From NCBI GenBank assembly GCA_049512075.1, contig JBEKXL010000001.1, forward strand, positions 192,001 through 256,000: a stretch of 64,000 bases of DNA, in the 5' to 3' direction. The translations under genes and the position numbers were made by a program. The notes beneath the pieces are model-generated. The model was not told the origin of the DNA and made no database searches. It was given only the letters and a program-made list of their open reading frames with translations. Positions 43,180 through 53,118 of the stretch are shown here, in pieces (the first letter of the stretch is position 1; each line of letters opens with the position of its first letter). This DNA comes from Candidatus Bathyarchaeia archaeon (GTDB lineage: Archaea; Thermoproteota; Bathyarchaeia; Bathyarchaeales; Bathycorpusculaceae).

Positions 43180-43309
43180 TGGCGGGCCCGCAGGGATTTG
43201 AGCCCAAACGGGGTCAAGTCCCACGACCCAGTTGCCAAAAAATGGCAAACGAGCGCGTCAAAACCCGCGCTCTTCAAAGCCGAGAGTTCGAATCTCTCCC
43301 GGGCTACCA
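43180..43309. other. tRNA-like folded unit (two inverted tRNA 3-prime fragments); probable island junction
   Basis: Minus-strand ..TCAAATCCCTGCGGGCCCGCCA and plus-strand GAGAGTTCGAATCTCTCCCGGGCTACCA; no D arm or anticodon arm. Confidence 0.7.
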
Positions 43310-43390
43310 TCAACCCAAGTCAGGTCGACGTTCAAACTCTCGGAATCAGTGCCCGCGCTCAATTCCTTCGTTACTTTTTTCTCTATCCCT

Positions 43391-43555
43391 TTATCTTAGC
43401 GGGTGATTTCCCCGAGTTAGATAGAGTAGAACAATGCCTCCTGCGGCTGATAAGGCGGCTGCATACGTAAAGGCAATCAGGGGTGACATAAGAGCCCAGA
43501 GTGCTCCGACTACTGCGCTAGAGGCAAAGTCGCCAATGCCGTTAACCGTCTGCAG
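43391..43555 (-). pseudogene. C-terminal fragment of an MFS transporter
   Basis: LQTVNGIGDFASSAVVGALW..AFTYAAALSAAG; no start codon. Confidence 0.6.
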
Positions 43556-44284
43556 GCGGAGCTTTGACTTGTCTCACCGGTGCAGTTTCATACGCCGCAT
43601 CTTTAGTGAACCCCAATATATCCAATGCAATTAGCCTCGGCTCGTCAACAATTCCAACAGCCGACATCCCGACTCTTATTGCGAACGGCGCTACCGTTGT
43701 GTGCTCTTTCACATCTTGAAGAACCTTTCTCTGTGAACCCAAAATAGCGCTCGCACGTGGCAGCGCTATTTTTTTCTATTTCTTTTAACCAACATATTTC
43801 CTAATGAATTCGTTTGGCCCTTGGTCGCTAAGGTCTTTTCTATGTTTACGGAAACAATTTAATTCAAAATTCGATGTTGGTCTCACGACAATCATCGATT
43901 AGTGTTACCGCGTAAGGTTCCTATTCGATTTTGAGTGAAATTTTAGTTTTCACACAAGCTCGAAAGAGTATGGAGACGTGTAGTTCCGAGTTCTGCAACC
44001 ACTCTCCTTCTGAAAATAATTTGGAAGGGAAATTCGCTTTTCTAAAAAAAGCGGTTAAACCCAAAGACTGTGTAAGAAAATTGAAATCTGTTTTTTATAT
44101 AGAAATGAAGGCGCGCCGCGCCCGCTTCCTATTTGAGACGTGAAGACTCGTTCTTATTTGAATTAAGGTTTTGAACCCTTTTGGGTTTAGGGACGAATGA
44201 GTTTAGACCTCTACCGGACTTGCGGGCTTGCGTCCGAGATAGACTTTCAGCATCATTTGCCAATTATTCAGACGAGTTGGAACC

Positions 44285-44333
44285 CAAGATAGCCCGATGG
44301 GAATTGAACTTCGCAGTGGGGACTTTGACCCCA
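44285..44333. repeat. tRNA T-arm-like repeat copy
   Basis: CAAGATAGCCCGATGGGAATTGAAC then GGGGACTTTGACCCCA. Confidence 0.65.
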
Positions 44334-44673
44334 TGATTAAGACTTTGTTTCCTCATTAGAGGGTTTGTCGCGGTCTTCTCCATGGCCAATATGGGTTTTA
44401 TGCGACCCGGGTGTTATTGCCGCGAAATACGATGGATCTTTGTGCCATGGAAACATGGGTGGTCTTTTTAGTTTCCCAGGTTCTTTTTCTGCTATGAGAG
44501 TATTTCTTCCCTGCTCAAGATCTGTTGAACGCTGAATGTAGTACGATGCAAATTAGCGCGCGCGCTTTTTCACCGTTTTTTTCCCTATTTTTGTTTCGAG
44601 TCGTTAATCTTAACAATACCTGTTTTGATCCGTCAGACGAGCAAATTATTTTACTATCTAGCAAGATAAAGGC

Positions 44674-45291
44674 TTGATTAAAAGAGGGAGCGATGAAATG
44701 GGAAAGGGATCATACCTTGACATGACTCCCGAAATGCGGGATTTTGCGAAAGAATTACTTTCTGATTCTGATTTTAAAGAAGCCGATAGATTATCCTGGG
44801 ATCTTGCTCAGGGCACTAAAAAAATGCGGCTGGACGCGAGAGTTCGTCTTATGGAAATCGTTAAACCGCCACCGAAAAGACCGCTGGAATATGCCCAGCA
44901 TGAAATTCAATATCTTCCCCAGTCGACGCGAAACAGTATTCGTTATCTTGGCGATTATATAGACCTTTTAGTTAAGGCTTATGCGTTTGAGGTTACGAAA
45001 AATCCTCGTTGCAAGGAGACTTCTTTAAACGGGAATCTTCAAAGATTGAGTTCCACTAAACATGGCGTTCCCTTGCAGTTAATTGATAATTTGAGAAGAT
45101 ACAACGCTTTGTTCTATAATCCAGCCAAACATGACTTTAGCACTCCCCCGCCTGATCGCGAGCACCATTTCACTTCGATAGAGACTATTTACTTGGTTTT
45201 TCTCTCGATGAAGCTTGCAGATGATATCAAGAAAATCTCGCCTTTGGCTAATCTGGTGAGTCTTGATAAAGAATCGATTCAGGAGTTTTAG
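44674..45291 (+). CDS. Hypothetical protein, HEPN-like
   Basis: All-helical pattern; YNPAKH at the position of the RxxxxH motif. Confidence 0.5.
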   Translation: MIKRGSDEMGKGSYLDMTPEMRDFAKELLSDSDFKEADRLSWDLAQGTKKMRLDARVRLMEIVKPPPKRPLEYAQHEIQYLPQSTRNSIRYLGDYIDLLVKAYAFEVTKNPRCKETSLNGNLQRLSSTKHGVPLQLIDNLRRYNALFYNPAKHDFSTPPPDREHHFTSIETIYLVFLSMKLADDIKKISPLANLVSLDKESIQEF

Positions 45292-45463
45292 GAACTGAAT
45301 TTGTATTGTTCCATTAGCAATCTATGACGCTTTTTCCGACATAGCCAAAACTCCACTCGACTGTTCATACTTTCAATTTGTGCTTGGTAGCAAATATGCC
45401 TGCCGCGGAATTGTACCTATCCGACGGGAATGGAACCCCGTGGAGTGAATCTGACCACTCTAA

Positions 45464-45513
45464 CACGACAAGAGATGGCCCGAGGGGATTTGAACCCAAA
45501 TGGGGTCAAGTCC
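45464..45513. repeat. tRNA T-arm-like repeat copy
   Basis: CACGACAAGAGATGGCCCGAGGGGATTTGAACCCAAATGGGGTCAAGTCC; first 27 nt match 49059-49085 at 26/27. Confidence 0.8.
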
Positions 45514-45664
45514 ATTCGTTTGCGCGCGCGCTTCTTGTCAAACGGCCTTGCTCGCCTTGTTAGCTCGCGCAGATTCACAGCCTATACAGTTGACTAGCGG
45601 GTAGGCGTCTGTTTCAGTTTGGTTGGCGTGCTTTGTCTTAGCGCGCGCGTTTCGGCACCGCATT

Positions 45665-46552
45665 CTAATGAAAATAGTTTTTGTCTGATATTTCGCCTTT
45701 TGTAACTTTCTCCACGAGACAATCAAGCAATTCGCCGTATGTGTGTATAAGTGAATTAAATTTAGTTTCAAGTTCTCGAAGTCTAATCCTCTTTTCTTTC
45801 TTTTCCATGACAAAAACAAGGCTCGAAGACTTATAATCGTAATAGAATTTTTCATGTGCCACACAATTCCTTATTTGATTTGCCTTGATTTCCCATTCTT
45901 CTGTATCCAGTACTCGTAGCGAAGGATAGTCACAAAGAAACCTTATCAACTCTTCATCGTTTTCTGGTCCTTTTCCAAGCTTCGCTTTGTAAATCTTGTT
46001 TAGCATTCCCTTTGTCCATTCATACCATGCCACATAGCCGTGTGCGACAATGAAGGCTTTCAACTTACGATTTCTTAGATTTCCAGCTAGACTTTGAATC
46101 TCTACATTGAATTGGATATTTCTCGTTCTGAACTGCATTCTCTCCTTTCGAGTATCATCGTAAAGTCTTTTTAACGTCTTAGGAGTCATGTCGAAAAGCT
46201 TCGTATATTCTTCTGTCCTTTTCCCTCGTGCTTCCCAAAACCACTTCATATAATTCTTGAGATATTCGCCCTTCACGTTTTGGATTGTCCTTGCCCATTC
46301 CTCTACATCATCCATTACCAGCTTGAACAGAAGCCTACCATACCAAAAGTCGTAAATATCCAGATTCTTGTTGAATGCCTCAGCACGGATTTCTCTAACT
46401 GAAAATACCTTTGTCCAATTTCCTCTGCAATTTATTTCCAGATTCTTTGAAGTTAGTATTAATTCGCCCCCGTCACAAATACACTTTTTAGCGCGTGAAT
46501 ACGCTACGCCTTTGAAAACGCCTTTTTTCACAACTTTTCCATTACGTTGCAT
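45665..46552 (-). CDS. Hypothetical protein with C-terminal HEPN-like domain
   Basis: RNCVAH motif; N-terminal PH-like beta region (GELILTSKNL). Confidence 0.55.
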   Translation of the reverse strand: MQRNGKVVKKGVFKGVAYSRAKKCICDGGELILTSKNLEINCRGNWTKVFSVREIRAEAFNKNLDIYDFWYGRLLFKLVMDDVEEWARTIQNVKGEYLKNYMKWFWEARGKRTEEYTKLFDMTPKTLKRLYDDTRKERMQFRTRNIQFNVEIQSLAGNLRNRKLKAFIVAHGYVAWYEWTKGMLNKIYKAKLGKGPENDEELIRFLCDYPSLRVLDTEEWEIKANQIRNCVAHEKFYYDYKSSSLVFVMEKKEKRIRLRELETKFNSLIHTYGELLDCLVEKVTKGEISDKNYFH

Positions 46553-46564
46553 GATAGGTGACTC

Positions 46565-47167
46565 TCATGGTTCGAAAGTTATCAATTTTCCACCGTTAAA
46601 GACATTTCCACAGCAGGGGCATACGAACAAGACTTGGCTCATATTGAAGAAAAAATGCAGAAATTGCCCAATCTGTTTTGAGGGTATCTTGATGCCTTCT
46701 CTGTGAATTTCCAGCATGCTAAGGAACCATTCAGACTGTTCTCCAAGGATTCTCCATGCTTCCTCAATTTTACCGTTCTTAATCAAAGATTCGTCAATTC
46801 CATTTATGGTTCTCACACTTTCGACTTTTTCGTTTAGTTCCGTCTTTGCCTTATCACAATAATCTGGAAGAAGAGCATTGACTTTCTCTTTATCATCTAT
46901 CCCTTCTTTTGGTTCGAATCTAATGTGCCAATAGCTTTTCTGGTCACCTTGAACTCGGCTCGGATGAAAGAGAAAACAATACCATTTCGTGCCCTTCTGA
47001 ATCAAACCCAAAACTATCGGACGCACCTTTAGACGCAAAGTATCATAGACACTATGCAAAAAATCTGAATAAGACATTTTTGGGTTCGTTGGTATTTCAA
47101 TATAGGTTTCCCAGATGCGGTTTAAGTGTGGCTTCTCCATTTTCCTCACAGCAGAACAATGCCACAA
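46565..47167 (-). CDS. Hypothetical protein
   Basis: 200-aa ORF; WYCFLFH..HIRFE; C-terminal CPCCG. Confidence 0.6.
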   Translation of the reverse strand: MWHCSAVRKMEKPHLNRIWETYIEIPTNPKMSYSDFLHSVYDTLRLKVRPIVLGLIQKGTKWYCFLFHPSRVQGDQKSYWHIRFEPKEGIDDKEKVNALLPDYCDKAKTELNEKVESVRTINGIDESLIKNGKIEEAWRILGEQSEWFLSMLEIHREGIKIPSKQIGQFLHFFFNMSQVLFVCPCCGNVFNGGKLITFEP

Positions 47168-47509
47168 ATTACGTTATAACTATAGCTGTCTAGACTTGAT
47201 TAACATCCACCTCACGGAATCACCACACGCATAGCACGCGCGCTGAGTGATGGGAATTGCGAAGAAGCAGTTGTGATTTGCCCGATACACGATCAGATCA
47301 TTCCAGTGACTGCGACCTACCGTACATGGTAGTTCTATTGCTCGCCCAGAGCAAGAGATAAGAGTGAAGAGGCTTGAAAACGAACGTGGAAATAGGAGTT
47401 CTTTCATATCTTAACACTTATGGCAACACCCGAGAAAGTGACCTGATAGACTGCAGATACAGACTTGGCGAATCTTCGGAGAAAGAAAACCCCGCCAAGG
47501 AGGTAAACC

Positions 47510-47923
47510 ATGAAAAAAGGAAGGATCCAAAAAAAACGAAACCGGTGGTATGAGCAGACAGAACGCGCGCAGTCGCAGAGCACAAAGTTGTGGACTACAG
47601 GTGGTGAGACTCGCGCGCCTCAGTCAGTCTATGAAAAAGTTCAGAAGGAACTGACTGGTAAGAGTCACGATGAACTTCTTGAGAGGTTTGAGAAGCGCTG
47701 GAATTTTCTTTGGGAGAACAGGGCAAAAGTGAAGAAGACATATCCTAAATTCTCACAGGCACAAAACATGACCGATGAGGAGCTTATTGAAGCTATTGCC
47801 CAGATAGAATCCGACCTTGCAATCAACACTGACAGAGAGATCGCTATAGCTTTTCTACAGGACCAGAAGCGTTTTGAAGGCAGACAAAAAGGAAGAGTGG
47901 ATAAATCTTTCCGTGAACACTAG
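47510..47923 (+). CDS. Hypothetical helical protein, possibly chimeric
   Basis: GGAGG RBS; two CGCGCGC tracts in 5-prime part. Confidence 0.4.
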   Translation: MKKGRIQKKRNRWYEQTERAQSQSTKLWTTGGETRAPQSVYEKVQKELTGKSHDELLERFEKRWNFLWENRAKVKKTYPKFSQAQNMTDEELIEAIAQIESDLAINTDREIAIAFLQDQKRFEGRQKGRVDKSFREH

Positions 47924-48160
47924 CAGGCAATCTCAAGCGCGCGCAACGTCGTTCCGGTTCAGCCTAGCCAAAATAGAACATGAACGCTCGGGCTTCTCCA
48001 TACACATCATTACATACATACCCAAGCACAGGTAAATAAGAAAATGTCAACCTCCAGAATTTAGCGAGACCCTAGCGCGCGCACTTACAAAGAGGAATTT
48101 AGGAACACGCTAGCGCGCTAGTTCGACAAACACAACATTAAGTTCGGGAAGCAACCAGAA

Positions 48161-48868
48161 CTAACCCCATTCTGCAAAAGACCTAGGCTCAAGATTCCAT
48201 ACGCAACTCTCTTTGACCCTCGCGTATCTCCAACATTGAGGCAGAAGTCTATGTTCTCTTTCAAATTGGTCAATGACCGTAATTCTAGCCTCAATTTTGA
48301 GTTCCTCGTTCAATGCCCACTTGTATTGATCCTGACTTATACTGAAACCTCCAAAAACTGTTGTGTGAGGATTCAAATTCCACTCTGTTTTTCCTGTATA
48401 GTATCCGCTTTCATCTTGGAGGTCCTTCACGTCATTGCCAATAATGACCTTGGTCTCGATTCTAATTCTTACGGGTAAAGAGTTACCCGCATGCTCTATC
48501 AACGTGGCAACAAACGGCAACGAGTCTCCAGGACGAGGATTCGCAGGTGTTGATGCGGTTGTTAAACGCAACAAAATAGGTGACACAAGGTTTCGTGTGT
48601 ATTCCTCGTACACTTGGTCTCTGCGCCTTCTTAATTCCTCAAACCTGTATTTGTTTCCCCTCTTACTCTTCGGATTGTAACGGTCAATTTTGGCGTGACA
48701 TTCATAACAAGCGGGCATTCCATTTTCTATGTTGTTGCCTCCATCGGGGTCAATGTGAGCTATCTCAATGTCTACTCCGCAAGCTTTCTTGCATAGACAA
48801 CAGTGACGGTCACTCCAAAGAAGCATTTTTATTTTGTCTTCGGGTCTAAATTCGGGTGGCCGAGGCAT
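48161..48868 (-). CDS. HNH endonuclease domain protein
   Basis: CCLC..EIAHID..GGNNIENGMPACYECH. Confidence 0.85.
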   Translation of the reverse strand: MPRPPEFRPEDKIKMLLWSDRHCCLCKKACGVDIEIAHIDPDGGNNIENGMPACYECHAKIDRYNPKSKRGNKYRFEELRRRRDQVYEEYTRNLVSPILLRLTTASTPANPRPGDSLPFVATLIEHAGNSLPVRIRIETKVIIGNDVKDLQDESGYYTGKTEWNLNPHTTVFGGFSISQDQYKWALNEELKIEARITVIDQFEREHRLLPQCWRYARVKESCVWNLEPRSFAEWG

Positions 48869-49058
48869 GTCTTTCCTCCGTGGTCTTAGCCTGTCGTATT
48901 ACTATTATCCGATTTGACTCAATGCGCATCGGCACTTAAAACGTTGTTTCTTTGATTTTTGAATAGAAATCAAGCAAGCTCTAACTACGGAAAACCAGCG
49001 CGCGCTGGCATCTGAAAAAAACCTCAGTAGCGATTCAATAATAAGTTTGACGAATTTT

Positions 49059-49087
49059 CACGGCAAGAGATGGCCCGAGGGGATTAG
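49059..49087. repeat. Truncated tRNA T-arm-like repeat copy
   Basis: CACGGCAAGAGATGGCCCGAGGGGATTAG, ending at (GC)n tract 49090-49098. Confidence 0.8.
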
Positions 49088-49098
49088 ACCGCGCGCGC

Positions 49099-49461
49099 TA
49101 CACCTTAAGAAAGGACACAAGACCCGAATTAGTGCAAAGAGTCGGCATAAGAGTACGTGAGACAAACAATCTAGTTGAAAGGATGCACGGCACAGTCAAA
49201 GACAGAACAAGAGTAATGAGAGGACTCAAAAGCTTCGATTCTACAAAGTCACTTCTGGAAGGCTTCACAATTCACTACAACTATGTGAGACCACACCAAA
49301 GCCTAGGCGGAAAAACGCCAGCACAAGCAGCAAGAACACAAGCACCTTGCACGTGGAAAGGATTGATAGACGAAGCAACAAAACATGAAGCGCAACTTCT
49401 GGCCAAAACTACAAGTCCTGAGAAAACGGAGAAAAGAGAAATGGAGGCGGTAGTGAAATGA
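49099..49461 (+). pseudogene. C-terminal fragment of IS6-type transposase
   Basis: YTLRKDTRPELV..NNLVERMHGT..YNYVRPH..GKTPA, homologous to 15783-16553; first two catalytic Asp regions missing. Confidence 0.85.
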
Positions 49462-49626
49462 GAAAAGTCTTAGTTGCTCTTCCCGAAAATGTGGCCGATC
49501 TCTTGAACAGGGAGCGCGCGCGGAACGATAGGTGAGACTTGTTCAGACACCTTGCGAACAATAATAATGAGTTGGCTGTCAGAGAAAGGATATTTGACGA
49601 AAGGTGGGAAGCATGGCAAAGAATAA
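49458..49626 (+). pseudogene. Ribbon-helix-helix-like small regulator, frameshifted at (GC)n
   Basis: MRKVLVALPENVADLLNRE / GTIGETCSDTLRTIIMSWLSEKGYL; ATGA-coupled to transposase fragment; 169 nt (one base out of frame). Confidence 0.6.
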
Positions 49627-49765
49627 ACCAAAACGAGAACTTACAGAAGAGGTTGACCTATTAGACGCTATGCTTTCAAGGCTTGTAGAATTGCTTGAAG
49701 AGAAAGGCATATTGACTCAAGAAGAATGGGAGAAGCATATCAAAGAAAGAGTCGTCGTGAAATAG
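49613..49765 (+). CDS. Small acidic helical protein (below ORF-track cutoff)
   Basis: MAKNKPKRELTEEVDLLDAMLSRLVELLEEKGILTQEEWEKHIKERVVVK; GGTGG RBS. Confidence 0.65.
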   Translation: MAKNKPKRELTEEVDLLDAMLSRLVELLEEKGILTQEEWEKHIKERVVVK

Positions 49766-49774
49766 GTATTCTAT

Positions 49775-50233
49775 TCATTCATCATCCAATTTTCTATAGA
49801 AGCACTTAGGTAGTACAACATAATTCTGATTATTTTCAAGCATCTTAAATAGAGACGAATTCTTGAAGTAGGAGAAACTTTGTGGTGGTTTGAAATCAGG
49901 AAACACCGCAAAGGGATCTATAGGACTCTCAAACCTGAAAGCCTCATCGATTTCAAAAGCGTGAATGATTTTCGTACCGTTACAATAGTTTAGATAAGCA
50001 CGCTCGTCGATACCGCTTGCCTCTTTGCATTTCTGCCAAATTCTTTTGGGCGTTCCAGAATGAATCCTCTTTACTCTGAACTCACCAACAATGCCTCTAG
50101 TCGGGCTACTTTCATACACGAACACCATATCGGTCAAAAATTTGGGTTTCTGCTTGCGAAATTCATATTTTTTTTCGCCGGAGAAAATCTTCTTGGAGTA
50201 TACAGGTTTAACCGACAATAATACGCTCATCAC
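49775..50233 (-). CDS. ASCH domain protein
   Basis: LLSVKPVYSKKIFSGEKKYEFRK (GxKxxExR), PPQSF. Confidence 0.88.
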   Translation of the reverse strand: MMSVLLSVKPVYSKKIFSGEKKYEFRKQKPKFLTDMVFVYESSPTRGIVGEFRVKRIHSGTPKRIWQKCKEASGIDERAYLNYCNGTKIIHAFEIDEAFRFESPIDPFAVFPDFKPPQSFSYFKNSSLFKMLENNQNYVVLPKCFYRKLDDE

Positions 50234-51719
50234 TATTCGTCTCCTTGATTATTTTCTCGAATGATTCATCAGAGATTTCCTCAAATCCTCTTGGTGCTGA
50301 ACTTACGTCTTTGATAATGCCAAGCTTGATAAGTTTTTCTAAATTTATTCTTTTTGGGAAAGAATAAGTGTAGAGGAAATTCACAACGAAAGGACGGTTT
50401 TTTGGATAATAATCCCATTGTTCTTTAAGCTCTTTATCTGAGAAAACGCTTCTTTTCCTACACAAGTCAATGAATTGCCGATAATCGAAGATTGAGGTGT
50501 AAATTCCGTCGACGATTCCGAGTGTGGTAATGACGGACTTGTAGTAACCGTCAGTTCTGTAGAAAACAATGATGTCGCCGATTCTCAGATCTCGCCTAAT
50601 TGACCTTGAGACATAGACTTTCGATATAGCATTTCTGAAAGGTTCGTTTTCAACAAAATCCATAGGTGACTCAGTTCTGAGGATTGAATCAGGAAAGAGG
50701 TTGGTATGATACTGAGGATATATTGGAACGATGAACTTGCGTGCTTTTCTTGACATGAATGGGTACGTTGTTTTAGGAGAACTCAGTGATGCGTTTGGAG
50801 AAAAGTCATGAGTGAAGACCACCTCTTTTCCAGAGGCTGATTGCTTTATTCCGTGATATATGAAACCGTATTCTATCAACAGATTGATCAAGCGAGAATG
50901 TTCAACGCGTTTGGTAAACAAGGTAACATAGATTTCATCGACTGAGAGATGCAATGCATTGTCAAAGACGATTTTCAGGAATCTTTCTCCGATTTTCAAT
51001 CCATTGAGTTGAACCTTGAACGTTCCGATTTTGAGTCGTTTCTTCTTAGAGAACGGCGGTTCTATATCTGAGTAAGGTTCAGATTCATCTTCTGTTTTAA
51101 GATAAAGAAAAGCGATGATTTTATCATCTGATGAACACACGTAAGCGATCTCCTCTGCTTTACGGTTGAACCATTTGTCAAAATCAACGTAGTCTTCTCT
51201 GAAAGAGTCAAAAAACTCGTCTTTCAGGTTGATATTGCCGAAAAACTCTTTCTTTACAGAAGGCACTTTGTAATCCACGAGCTCAGGATTCTCTGCAGTA
51301 ACCTTTTCCAGAAACGAGTCAATGGAAAATACTTTTGTCTCAATTCCCAAGTCATGCGCTTTTCTATGGATTTTCGCGTCCTCGGTTATCAACAAATCTA
51401 CGCGGTCAGAAGCGACTTCATTTATTAGAGTTGTATCATTTCTGTCACTTTCTGAAGAATCGTATTTCTTTGCAACAGTTCGAACTTCATCTTTCAGTTG
51501 TGCTTGGGTTTTCAGTTGATTGTAACTCTGTATTTTCGTGAGAAATGCCTTTCTCGTCTCGGCATTCTGATGAAGAGATATTTCGTCAATTGTAACCTGA
51601 TGAACATATTTCTTGTATCCTAGTTTGTCAATCCACCAAAATAGTTTGCCGATTTCCTCTCTCGTTGGATCTTTTGCCTCGCGGTGCACTATGATATTAG
51701 TGTCCAGCAACACTCGCAA
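50208..51719 (-). CDS. PIN + GNAT acetyltransferase + ASCH/PUA-like fusion
   Basis: LLDTNI, LITED (PIN); FFDSFREDY, KIGTFKV..GLKIGERF (GNAT); IVPIYPQYHTNLFPD, GDIIVFY. Confidence 0.85.
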   Translation of the reverse strand: MRVLLDTNIIVHREAKDPTREEIGKLFWWIDKLGYKKYVHQVTIDEISLHQNAETRKAFLTKIQSYNQLKTQAQLKDEVRTVAKKYDSSESDRNDTTLINEVASDRVDLLITEDAKIHRKAHDLGIETKVFSIDSFLEKVTAENPELVDYKVPSVKKEFFGNINLKDEFFDSFREDYVDFDKWFNRKAEEIAYVCSSDDKIIAFLYLKTEDESEPYSDIEPPFSKKKRLKIGTFKVQLNGLKIGERFLKIVFDNALHLSVDEIYVTLFTKRVEHSRLINLLIEYGFIYHGIKQSASGKEVVFTHDFSPNASLSSPKTTYPFMSRKARKFIVPIYPQYHTNLFPDSILRTESPMDFVENEPFRNAISKVYVSRSIRRDLRIGDIIVFYRTDGYYKSVITTLGIVDGIYTSIFDYRQFIDLCRKRSVFSDKELKEQWDYYPKNRPFVVNFLYTYSFPKRINLEKLIKLGIIKDVSSAPRGFEEISDESFEKIIKETNSDERIIVG

Positions 51720-51873
51720 CTTTCTTCCCTTTTCAGATTGTCTTGATCTCTTGAAAAGATTTGCCCCTAAAGAAGTGGAAAGCCTTCACCAACCACAAAT
51801 AACTTAACAGCGTATCGATACAAGGCAAAATTAAAAAGGGACAAAATCCACCACAAATAACGCAGCAGTATCG

Positions 51874-52845
51874 CTAAGGGCTAAGTTTTTTATAGTATTC
51901 GGGCGTTGATAACACTCGGAGTGGAATCTTTGGAACGTGCTCTCTGGCAAGCTTTGTCCCAAGAAAATTCACGACTTCCTCGATTTCCATCTTGCCTCTG
52001 TAACCCAAAGTTTGAAGAAAACCGAAGTTTCTCTCGATTGATCGATTTTCCCCATCCATCAGGGCTTGCAGAATCGCATTAACGTAGAAAGTCTCAGGGT
52101 CTGAAGCGATCTCCTTAACCATGCCATCGAAATACACGGACTTGGTGCCGATGTGTTCTGTGAGAAAAGTATAGGAAGAGTCGCGTTTTGAGAAGTGGGC
52201 TTTGGGAAAGTAGTGCTCTGCAATCGTTTCGTACAACCATCCCCTAGTTGCTTTCGCTATGACTGACGACCCAGCATGCACAGCACGAGCAGTATAACCA
52301 TAGGGTATGCCAGAATATATTGCGTCTATCGCATGTTTTTCGAGAGTTTTGATATCGTCAGGGTCATTGATCAAAATGCCTTTTTCGTTCTCGTCATATA
52401 CTTCTGATTTTGAAAGGTCGAATGAACCAGAAAGCGCCAAGTCGTTGGTCAGAATGAGCGTTGAATGAAGGTCGCGGGCGAAGAAAACTCTGCAACCAAC
52501 CTCATCCAGAAAGTCGATAAGATGAAAGGCTATTTGCGAGTATTCTCGACCTCTGTATTTTTCATCTTTTAGAGGGTCATTTGTTACGATGTTGATTTCT
52601 GCCCCAAAAACAAGTTTTACAAGCAGCATTGCATATGCAAGATTTATTGAAAATATCCCACAGTCTAACCCAAACCACGATTCATCCAAACCAAGAACAT
52701 CAGCATCGATCGTCAGTTGTACATCACTAATCCACGGGCTCAAAACATAGATTTTTGGAAATTCGCACAGTCTTTGCCGATACCCAGAAAAAATCTGGAA
52801 CATTTCAGCTCGAATCCTGTCGTTCGGAATAGTCTTGGTCGTCAT
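51874..52845 (-). CDS. PLD-like domain protein with degenerate HKD motif
   Basis: LSPWISD; LHSTLILTNDLALSGSFDLS; NEKG. Confidence 0.65.
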   Translation of the reverse strand: MTTKTIPNDRIRAEMFQIFSGYRQRLCEFPKIYVLSPWISDVQLTIDADVLGLDESWFGLDCGIFSINLAYAMLLVKLVFGAEINIVTNDPLKDEKYRGREYSQIAFHLIDFLDEVGCRVFFARDLHSTLILTNDLALSGSFDLSKSEVYDENEKGILINDPDDIKTLEKHAIDAIYSGIPYGYTARAVHAGSSVIAKATRGWLYETIAEHYFPKAHFSKRDSSYTFLTEHIGTKSVYFDGMVKEIASDPETFYVNAILQALMDGENRSIERNFGFLQTLGYRGKMEIEEVVNFLGTKLAREHVPKIPLRVLSTPEYYKKLSP

Positions 52846-53009
52846 GGCTTGTCAAATCAACTGACACCGTATGATTCCCCATTCATAAAACACTTTGCTT
52901 TCGCGGTCATTCAGAAAACCGTGCGCGCTCGCTCAATACGTTATGTTCTCTCCCGAGTCGTTCCCAATGCCTATAGGAAAACCGATGGATCTACATGGTG
53001 TTGGGTGTT

Positions 53010-53118
53010 AGTCTCTGGGGATTAGAACCCAAACGGGGTCAAGTCCCATAGCCTAGCGCGGGCCTGGTTACAAAACTCACTTTTGCAAAGCCGAGAGTTC
53101 GAATACCTCGCGAGGGCT
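53010..53118. repeat. Second, diverged copy of the tRNA-like folded unit
   Basis: Shares CCCAAACGGGGTCAAGTCCCA and CAAAGCCGAGAGTTCGAAT with 43180-43309. Confidence 0.8.

Follow-up and report, generated by a model that had tools for sequence, protein, structure and literature searches.

The tRNA-gene (tDNA) islands mapped by Islander (PMC4383910) have several features in common: the tRNA gene is restored, the end of the island opposite to it is marked by a displaced piece of the tRNA, an integrase gene adjoins the tRNA, and relatives show an empty site. In this study, an island of this kind was characterized in an archaeon whose closest public relatives are labelled Candidatus Bathyarchaeia (assembly GCA_049512075.1, 2.73 Mb in 86 contigs). 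The window, i.e. the whole stretch of DNA analysed, spans 64,000 nucleotides (nt) of contig JBEKXL010000001.1, hereafter C1 (C1:192001-256000; window coordinates carry the prefix w). Between w43180 and w53118, repeats resembling the T arm of a tRNA separate blocks of genes. These repeats are probably attachment (att) site remnants of mobile elements that a tyrosine integrase put into the 3' end of tRNA-Arg(GCG). As in the Islander islands, we found an intact tRNA, a displaced 3' fragment with its native flank, an adjoining integrase and an empty site. The locus differs from them by its integrase family, whose members mostly fall below the Pfam threshold and which has no NCBIfam model, and by extra T-arm-like copies at fixed spacing.

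Three other kinds of systems invite comparison. In the tycheposon islands of Prochlorococcus (10.1101/2020.12.28.424599) and in arrays of integrated elements in archaea (PMC6563490), newcomers push older elements outward, and partial tRNAs and decayed elements likewise lie amid defence and adaptive cargo. Unlike these, the internal partial tRNAs of the present island match a tRNA that is not the occupied one, and no integrase remnants adjoin them. Among streptococcal integrative and conjugative or mobilizable elements (PMC5704250), cis-mobilizable elements (CIMEs) have lost the integrase, kept the att repeats and stand in tandem with an integrase-bearing element, as does the segment w45469-49085 described below; however, the host here is an archaeon, and no conjugation genes were seen. 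Finally, integrons, including those of Archaea (10.1101/2022.02.06.479319), also have cargo blocks split by imperfect inverted repeats near a tyrosine recombinase, whereas the locus studied here has no IntI, its repeats are tRNA-derived and lack the attC layout, and its blocks are multi-gene and on both strands.

The outer repeat and the intact tRNA-Arg(GCG)

The original prediction, made from the window sequence, had listed six co-oriented T-arm-like sites. With up to 2 mismatches, CCCGANGGGANTNGAACCC matches the window five times (w43187, w44293, w45420, w45479 and w49074), always on the plus strand; 0.04 matches were expected by shuffling and 0 of 100 shuffles reached five, an enrichment which is inflated because CCCGANGGGANTNGAACCC was derived from the very sites counted. 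At the sixth site, w53017, the T-arm part alone matches, and 4 mismatches to CCCGANGGGANTNGAACCC were counted by eye. The repeats are real, as exact identities to tRNA genes, many of which contain introns in this assembly, also indicate: w43180-43201 is identical to the 3' end of tRNA-Arg (22/22), and w45477-45497 is identical, at 21/21, to the 3' portion of a tRNA that contains an intron and lies on contig C5 (the label Leu-CAA given to this tRNA by ARAGORN is doubtful, and its anticodon could not be decoded by hand). The tRNA likeness of the copies at w44293 and w45420 is weak, both being degenerate pieces that match a tRNA T arm at 17/18 (E 0.18). A single orientation holds for the six listed sites, but a tRNA-Gln fragment (w43281-43309) and a related module (w44167-44195) point the other way. 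As had been noticed, three repeats run into a hairpin, whose 29-nt core lies at w43193, w45485 and w53018 and has five copies in the whole genome (≤5 substitutions). The features at the outer end of the array are the following.

w43180-43201, minus strand: displaced tRNA-Arg(GCG) 3' end, from the T loop through CCA; direct repeat (attR core) at the distal end of a 60.8-kb island
w43193-43222, plus strand: imperfect inverted repeat made of an antisense T arm, a 4-nt spacer and a T-arm-like sequence named site A (w43210-43222); P-arm side of attR
w43281-43309, plus strand: tRNA-Gln 3' end fragment in opposite orientation; member of a separate family of Gln-type att modules
w44167-44195, minus strand: small module made of an arm, an AAAA spacer and GGGTTCAAAACC; opposite to the main repeats
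w44293-44332, minus strand: degenerate T-arm/acceptor-like piece (w44293-44311), then a site-like 15-mer (w44318-44332)
w45416-45460, minus strand: degenerate fragment resembling a tRNA 3' half, with anticodon-arm-like and T-arm-like hairpins, as read from the sequence

On C1, the 22-nt sequence of the outer repeat has two copies only, C1:235180 and C1:295944 (to 295965), 60,764 nt apart. The second copy belongs to an intact, intron-bearing tRNA-Arg(GCG) on the minus strand (C1:295944-296090 = w103944-104090). A search beyond the 64 kb, which had been recommended, thus yielded both the matching tRNA and an adjoining integrase gene, named int436, 39.9 kb past the right edge of the window. Within the window there is no match to the integrase domain PF00589, and no matching intact tRNA is found by ARAGORN, as had been stated.

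Comparison with relatives shows the empty site. In three genomes of the same genus, G001, G002 (95% identity) and G004, an intact tRNA-Arg(GCG) lies on the minus strand within 100 nt after the gene of an ABC-transporter ATPase; the counterpart of this gene ends here at w42116. The tRNA-Arg homologues of relatives are called Arg-GCG by ARAGORN. A fourth genome, G003, has a different 10-kb insert at the corresponding place. The end of the G002 tRNA together with its downstream flank aligns to w43168-43205 at 92% identity, so that w43168-43180 is homologous to the native flank that follows the CCA in G002. The flank that follows the intact tRNA-Arg differs from this native flank and is element-derived. 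The GC content of the interval is 0.39-0.46, compared to 0.475 for the genome and 0.49-0.51 for the flanks. As judged from these alignments, w43180-43201 is the displaced 3' end of tRNA-Arg(GCG), with its native flank still attached. Integration would have rebuilt the tRNA from element DNA and pushed the original 3' end and its flank away, leaving the former at w43180-43201 and int436 beside the rebuilt tRNA at w103944-104090. For this outermost repeat, integration at the tRNA, one of two explanations offered by the original prediction, is upheld.

The tRNA-Arg gene has two further peculiarities. Its D loop carries an insert of ~68 nt, apparently also in G003, while the gene without insert measures 79 nt in G002, G004 and G001 (compared at L012:5485-5563). 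Its 5' side (C1:295896-299292 = w103896-107292) is a second hot spot: a 356-aa integrase open reading frame (ORF) runs there antisense through the whole tRNA-Arg, and a second one, of 374 aa, overlaps 36 nt that are copied from the 5' part of the tRNA (C1:298346-298381). At the matching position, G002 has a 48%-identical integrase.

The int436 family and the proposed layout of its attachment site

The int436 gene is a 436-aa ORF on the minus strand (C1:294603-295913), which starts 30 nt past the 3' end of the intact tRNA; the methionine at residue 10 is nearly invariant in the family and may be the true start. The match of int436 to PF00589 is weak (E 9e-4, 19.5 bits for a cut-off of 27.1), it has no NCBIfam match, and a PDB sequence search with int436 alone returned no match. 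The profile of its family does match archaeal XerA structures (4a8e, 1.9e-9; 5hxy, 3.7e-6). In an alignment of 37 members, 15 reach the PF00589 threshold and 22, int436 included, remain below it; R159, K204, Y275, H305 and Y313 are the same in all of them, and conservation at R278 is at least 90%. On these sequence grounds, int436 is a divergent tyrosine integrase. The family comprises 2165 cluster representatives (E ≤0.001), with 437 loci in the genome collection, 80 of which were fetched from Bathyarchaeia, Thermoplasmata, Hadarchaeota, Methanomassiliicoccales, Nitrososphaeria and other groups. Upstream sequence of 300 nt or more was available for 67 loci; in 52 of these, a co-oriented tRNA ends at most 200 nt from the integrase, which is a lower bound since intron-rich tRNAs are missed by ARAGORN. 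A genome of another family contains relatives that share 69-76% identity with int436. In G118, from another family of the same order, the 76%-identical integrase is found in the same arrangement as here (tRNA, 6 nt, 13-mer, integrase).

Integrases of the SSV type in archaea (PMC7253208) likewise target tRNA genes, but int436 starts after the tRNA and is unsplit, and its G118 homologue also starts after the tRNA. A split integrase of this type was considered for int436 and rejected: the reading frame that crosses the core stays open for 44 codons only, and int436 is encoded in another frame. ORFs of the SSV-like kind that do pass through an att site are present here on the 5' side of tRNA-Arg and in Gln-type modules.

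Between the intact tRNA and int436, 7 nt past the CCA, lies a 12-mer that is an inverted copy of the second arm of the hairpin; it was named site C. A scan for such copies was made 14-89 nt past the T arm of family loci, with ≤4 mismatches of 13. A clean T arm was present at 56 loci; in 43 of these, the T-arm-like copy that scored best stood at offset 31-33 downstream, 40 of the 43 having an offset of exactly 32. Scanning the upstream side instead, as a control, gave 2/56. The T-arm-like copy at a fixed distance after the tRNA makes site C a family feature. We thus propose that the attachment site of the family has three T-arm-like parts, namely site A, a core formed by the T arm and acceptor, and site C. 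Site A would be inverted and placed 4 nt before the T arm, site C direct and placed ~32 nt past the T-arm start. The hairpin of the window would then be site A beside the T arm of a displaced fragment, i.e. the element-side (P-arm) half of attR. That the attachment site of an integrase family widespread in archaea includes a T-arm mimic at fixed spacing is a new detail on a known kind of system: no description of this layout was found in the main texts searched, among them a review of archaeal tyrosine recombinases (PMC8371274). At 63 family loci, a search of the surrounding 2.5 kb gave no attR copy, a result that elements of larger size would explain.

The hairpin pattern is present in 6 of 151 genomes of the order, this one included, whereas the reversed control pattern is present in none. 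Could the modules be genes for small structured tRNA-like RNAs? They form a 13-bp imperfect hairpin, which is stabler on the plus strand (z -2.0 to -2.6; -11.7 kcal/mol and z -2.6 for w43193-43222 folded as DNA) than on the minus strand (z -0.9 to -1.5). In the 16 copies compared, which come from six genomes, compensatory changes are seen at one pair (AU 7 times, CG 3 times, GC once), but another is unpaired in 11 of the 16, and overall 85.6% of cells pair compared to 83.7% in shuffles. In addition, Rfam gives nothing at gathering score in the 64 kb and nothing at E ≤1 in w42500-54000, ARAGORN finds no tRNA in the 43-54 kb interval, and no 5' acceptor strand can be read from the sequence, so that an RNA gene is hardly credible. 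Similarly, w43181-43310, with CCA-like ends on both strands, was considered as an intron-bearing or split tRNA and rejected, ARAGORN and Rfam being null and a 5' acceptor strand lacking. The arms are for the most part conserved as sequence, with weak co-variation, which fits protein-binding sites better than a selected fold. We infer that sites A and C would bind the integrase.

The repeats might also be ends or copies of a randomly scattered miniature inverted-repeat transposable element (MITE), unrelated to integration. Some pairs among the G118 hairpins, which lie on four contigs, have ~50 nt upstream in common, and the high word depth at w45477-45514 in metagenomes indicates many copies in the community. 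Yet the genome holds 5 copies only, 3 of them in this island; the outer copy is a true tRNA end with its native flank; the unit has neither terminal inverted repeats nor target duplications, and the flanks of its copies are unrelated; and the motif goes with one integrase family, at constant spacing. A MITE origin is therefore very improbable.

A distinct MITE-like element of 128-130 nt, with 15-nt terminal inverted repeats, was seen at C1:273157-273284 (w81157-81284) and C2:161167-161296. It occupies the 4-nt loop of two different hairpin modules, with the loop letters duplicated on both sides. Its near-identical copies amid unrelated flanks suggest an insertion aimed at the hairpin.

Internal junctions and probable growth of the island

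Farther inside the island, the array contains the following junctions.

w45464-45513, minus strand: attR-type junction in which 4 nt separate site A from a T-arm core with the exact sequence of the C5 tRNA; direct repeat on the left of a 3.6-kb block
w49016-49091, minus strand: attL-like junction made of a C5-type core and a 55-nt arm; its hairpin side is cut at the GCGCGCGC run w49091-49099
w53018-53047, plus strand: third hairpin, T-arm antisense and site A; synteny breakpoint with respect to a related metagenome contig
w53090-53123, plus strand: decayed tRNA-Gln-like T arm, with the layout seen at w43281-43309

The near-identity of the sequences starting at w45464 and w49059, which had been pointed out, was recovered by BLAST (28 of 30 bases in common), the longest exact run being 22 nt (w45469-45490 = w49064-49085). 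These 22-nt exact repeats flank a 3.6-kb block (w45469-49085) holding five ORFs without an integrase domain, with site A at one end and at the other the 55-nt arm, shared with C1:273076-273148 (92% over 73 nt) and with G003. Like a CIME, this block has flanking att sites and no integrase or transfer genes. Site A with a T arm is found at w45479, at w53017 and at C1:273134 (w81134, outside the window), each time in the orientation expected for the attR of a minus-strand tRNA.

The original prediction had proposed to compare strains for gain or loss of blocks at the repeats. For metagenomes, comparison was made with the assembled contigs of four runs, and window parts uncovered in runs X7 and X9 are uninformative either way. 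One contig of run X7, which stems from another sample, is 97.7% identical over w50917-53046, and then diverges exactly at the right edge of the w53018-53047 hairpin; closely related strains thus have different content at one internal junction or more. Metagenome contigs also show an opposite-strand joint between w44151 and w45480. Within the 3.6-kb block, in contrast, a two-gene unit (w45671-47150, encoding 295-aa and 200-aa proteins of no known family) is 88.7% identical in DNA to L046, a contig from another Bathyarchaeia metagenome-assembled genome, but the shared unit ends at gene boundaries, off the repeats, and is surrounded by unrelated flanks. L046 is the one contig homologous to a block that was found in the genome collection. 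In 5 relatives, no block DNA was found beyond a fragment of insertion sequence (IS) and short repeats.

These junctions (w45479, w49074, w53017 and w81134) may record further integrations by the same family, newcomers pushing older elements outward and IS insertion and deletion eroding them afterwards. Several observations weigh against this account of the repeats as remnants of integration. First, the cores at w45479, w49074 and w81134 correspond to the C5 tRNA in its 3' end and not to tRNA-Arg, so that repeated integration at tRNA-Arg alone needs extra steps. Second, no internal core is followed by site C or by an integrase, and w53017 keeps the T-arm part only. Third, the segments delimited by the repeats are short (2.3-3.9 kb), and none contains an integrase. 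Moreover, the occurrence of the hairpin on four contigs in G118 is more scattered than a single island would give, and the 3' end of tRNA-Gln accompanies the hairpin, without explanation, in 4-5 of 16 copies. Finally, no excision or circular junction was seen in assembled metagenome contigs, which cannot show rare forms. For the internal repeats, serial integration at one tRNA is plausible but unproven: they carry the P-arm site of the family in the expected orientation, but C5-type cores and no downstream arm.

The C5-type cores may also be read as a sign that the island came in one event, already composite, its internal junctions having been formed at the C5-type tRNA of earlier hosts. The 21/21 identity to a tRNA other than tRNA-Arg and the single pair of tRNA-Arg repeats would both follow, and the relatives of int436 found at 69-76% identity in another family show that elements move between lineages. 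On present data, such an arrival is indistinguishable from local accretion, although the break at w53046 in a 97.7%-identical contig fits local turnover better. We consider a single composite arrival unlikely, and favour, as the most likely history of the internal repeats, serial integration followed by decay.

Another possibility is that integrase-less blocks bearing T-arm-like sites are moved in and out in trans by the int436-family integrase that adjoins the tRNA, after the manner of integrons or of CIMEs. The five-ORF block with its 22-nt exact direct repeats, site A and 55-nt arm would suit such a cassette, as would the strain breakpoint placed exactly at one hairpin and the good conservation of site A in the three window hairpins while their flanks differ. 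On the other hand, the sites at w49074 and w53017 are truncated, the blocks hold up to five ORFs on both strands, the block homologous to L046 ends at gene boundaries, and block DNA is missing from the 5 relatives. An integron-like array, the second explanation originally offered, is not supported: the whole genome has no integron integrase (best TIGR02249 score 36.1 bits for a cut-off of 265), blocks are multi-gene and of mixed strands, and the one shared unit lies off the repeats. We thus regard movement of cassettes in trans as quite improbable. The same low probability attaches to its general form, in which the int436 family would read the DNA form of the tRNA T arm, blocks keeping the mimic and core would stay recombination-competent, and islands would be open cassette platforms.

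Two further classes of sequence accompany the hairpins. The first consists of Gln-type modules. The fragment w43281-43309 is identical over 29/29 nt to the 3' ends of both tRNA-Gln genes (C4, C11), the same Gln composite is present in G083 and G132, and nhmmer detects at least 12 further modules in the genome. A Gln end, intact or decayed, lies 35-60 nt past site A and points outward at w43187, at w53017, in G083, in G132 and, weakly, in one copy of G118. In the window, these modules of ~120 nt ending in a tRNA-Gln 3' end span w43223-43342 and w53050-53123; others are at C6:107995, 109028, 117117 and 120380, C29:746, C32:9500 and C39:237, and on C1 at 342460, 364714, 368747 and 368949. The module at C6:120380 lies in the N-terminal coding region of an SSV-like integrase ORF (C6:120353-121399), which reads antisense through it, and the C32 module begins 4 nt past tRNA-Pro(TGG).

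The second class consists of (GC)4 or longer runs, which are hugely over-represented genome-wide (GCGCGCGC occurs 646 times, distributed over 547 runs, for an expectation of ~28) and tend to be flanked as in TA-(GC)n-TA. Examples in the window are w44558-44566, w45524-45532, w48998-49006 and w49091-49099, and several tRNA-like modules end exactly at a (GC)n run.

Island cargo and significance

The cargo of the island comprises type I restriction-modification, an SNF2 helicase with an Mrr nuclease, McrBC, a PLD-family nuclease, an Eco57I-like methylase and PDC-M11, for which "defence island" is a fair name. The following cargo lies in or beyond the array.

w49100-49765, plus strand: IS fragment, C-terminal part of a DDE transposase (rve_3, E 4e-14; DDE_Tnp_IS240), abutting a truncated repeat
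w49775-51719, minus strand: candidate defence pair PDC-M11, composed of an ASCH protein and of a PIN-like protein of 503 aa; cargo between two repeats
w56183-61228, minus strand: type I restriction-modification genes, S, M and R subunits (Pfam Methylase_S, N6_Mtase, ResIII, EcoEI_R_C)

The nuclease and toxin genes that had been announced between the repeats are borne out in part, by one candidate pair, PDC-M11 (PADLOC: PDC-M11A E 1e-215, PDC-M11B E 2.5e-39; Pfam: ASCH and a weak PIN); for most other ORFs of the 43-56 kb interval, family searches returned no known family. The IS fragment is 83% identical to C20:4342-4923.

Three smaller observations were made in the window. Just inside the island, w43390-43556, which overlaps a 66-aa ORF without family match, is kept in G006 (74%) and in a metagenome contig (~90%). 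A repeat of 30-60 nt at w48063-48124 is found on at least 7 other contigs and in many copies in same-genus relatives. Far from the island, w8381-8480 is reported by ARAGORN as a 100-nt tRNA with an odd 4-letter anticodon, and as tRNA-Met(CAT) with a 3-nt intron if introns are allowed; it scores below the Rfam gathering threshold.

Taken as remnants of attachment sites, the puzzling tRNA-like repeats of this locus reduce to an ordinary mechanism, in which integrases make a defence island grow beside a tRNA gene. A T arm, a T-arm-like copy 32 nt downstream and then an integrase of ~430 aa provide a signature for mapping islands in Bathyarchaeia and other archaea, all the more useful as standard annotation misses the int436 family, for which there is no NCBIfam model and in which int436 itself has a sub-threshold Pfam score. 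If the T-arm mimics are truly binding sites of the integrase, they would reveal the way in which the family recognises the tRNA that it targets. And if open cassette platforms did exist at archaeal tRNA genes, with blocks inserted, excised and swapped in trans, they would be a tRNA-based functional analogue of the integron.

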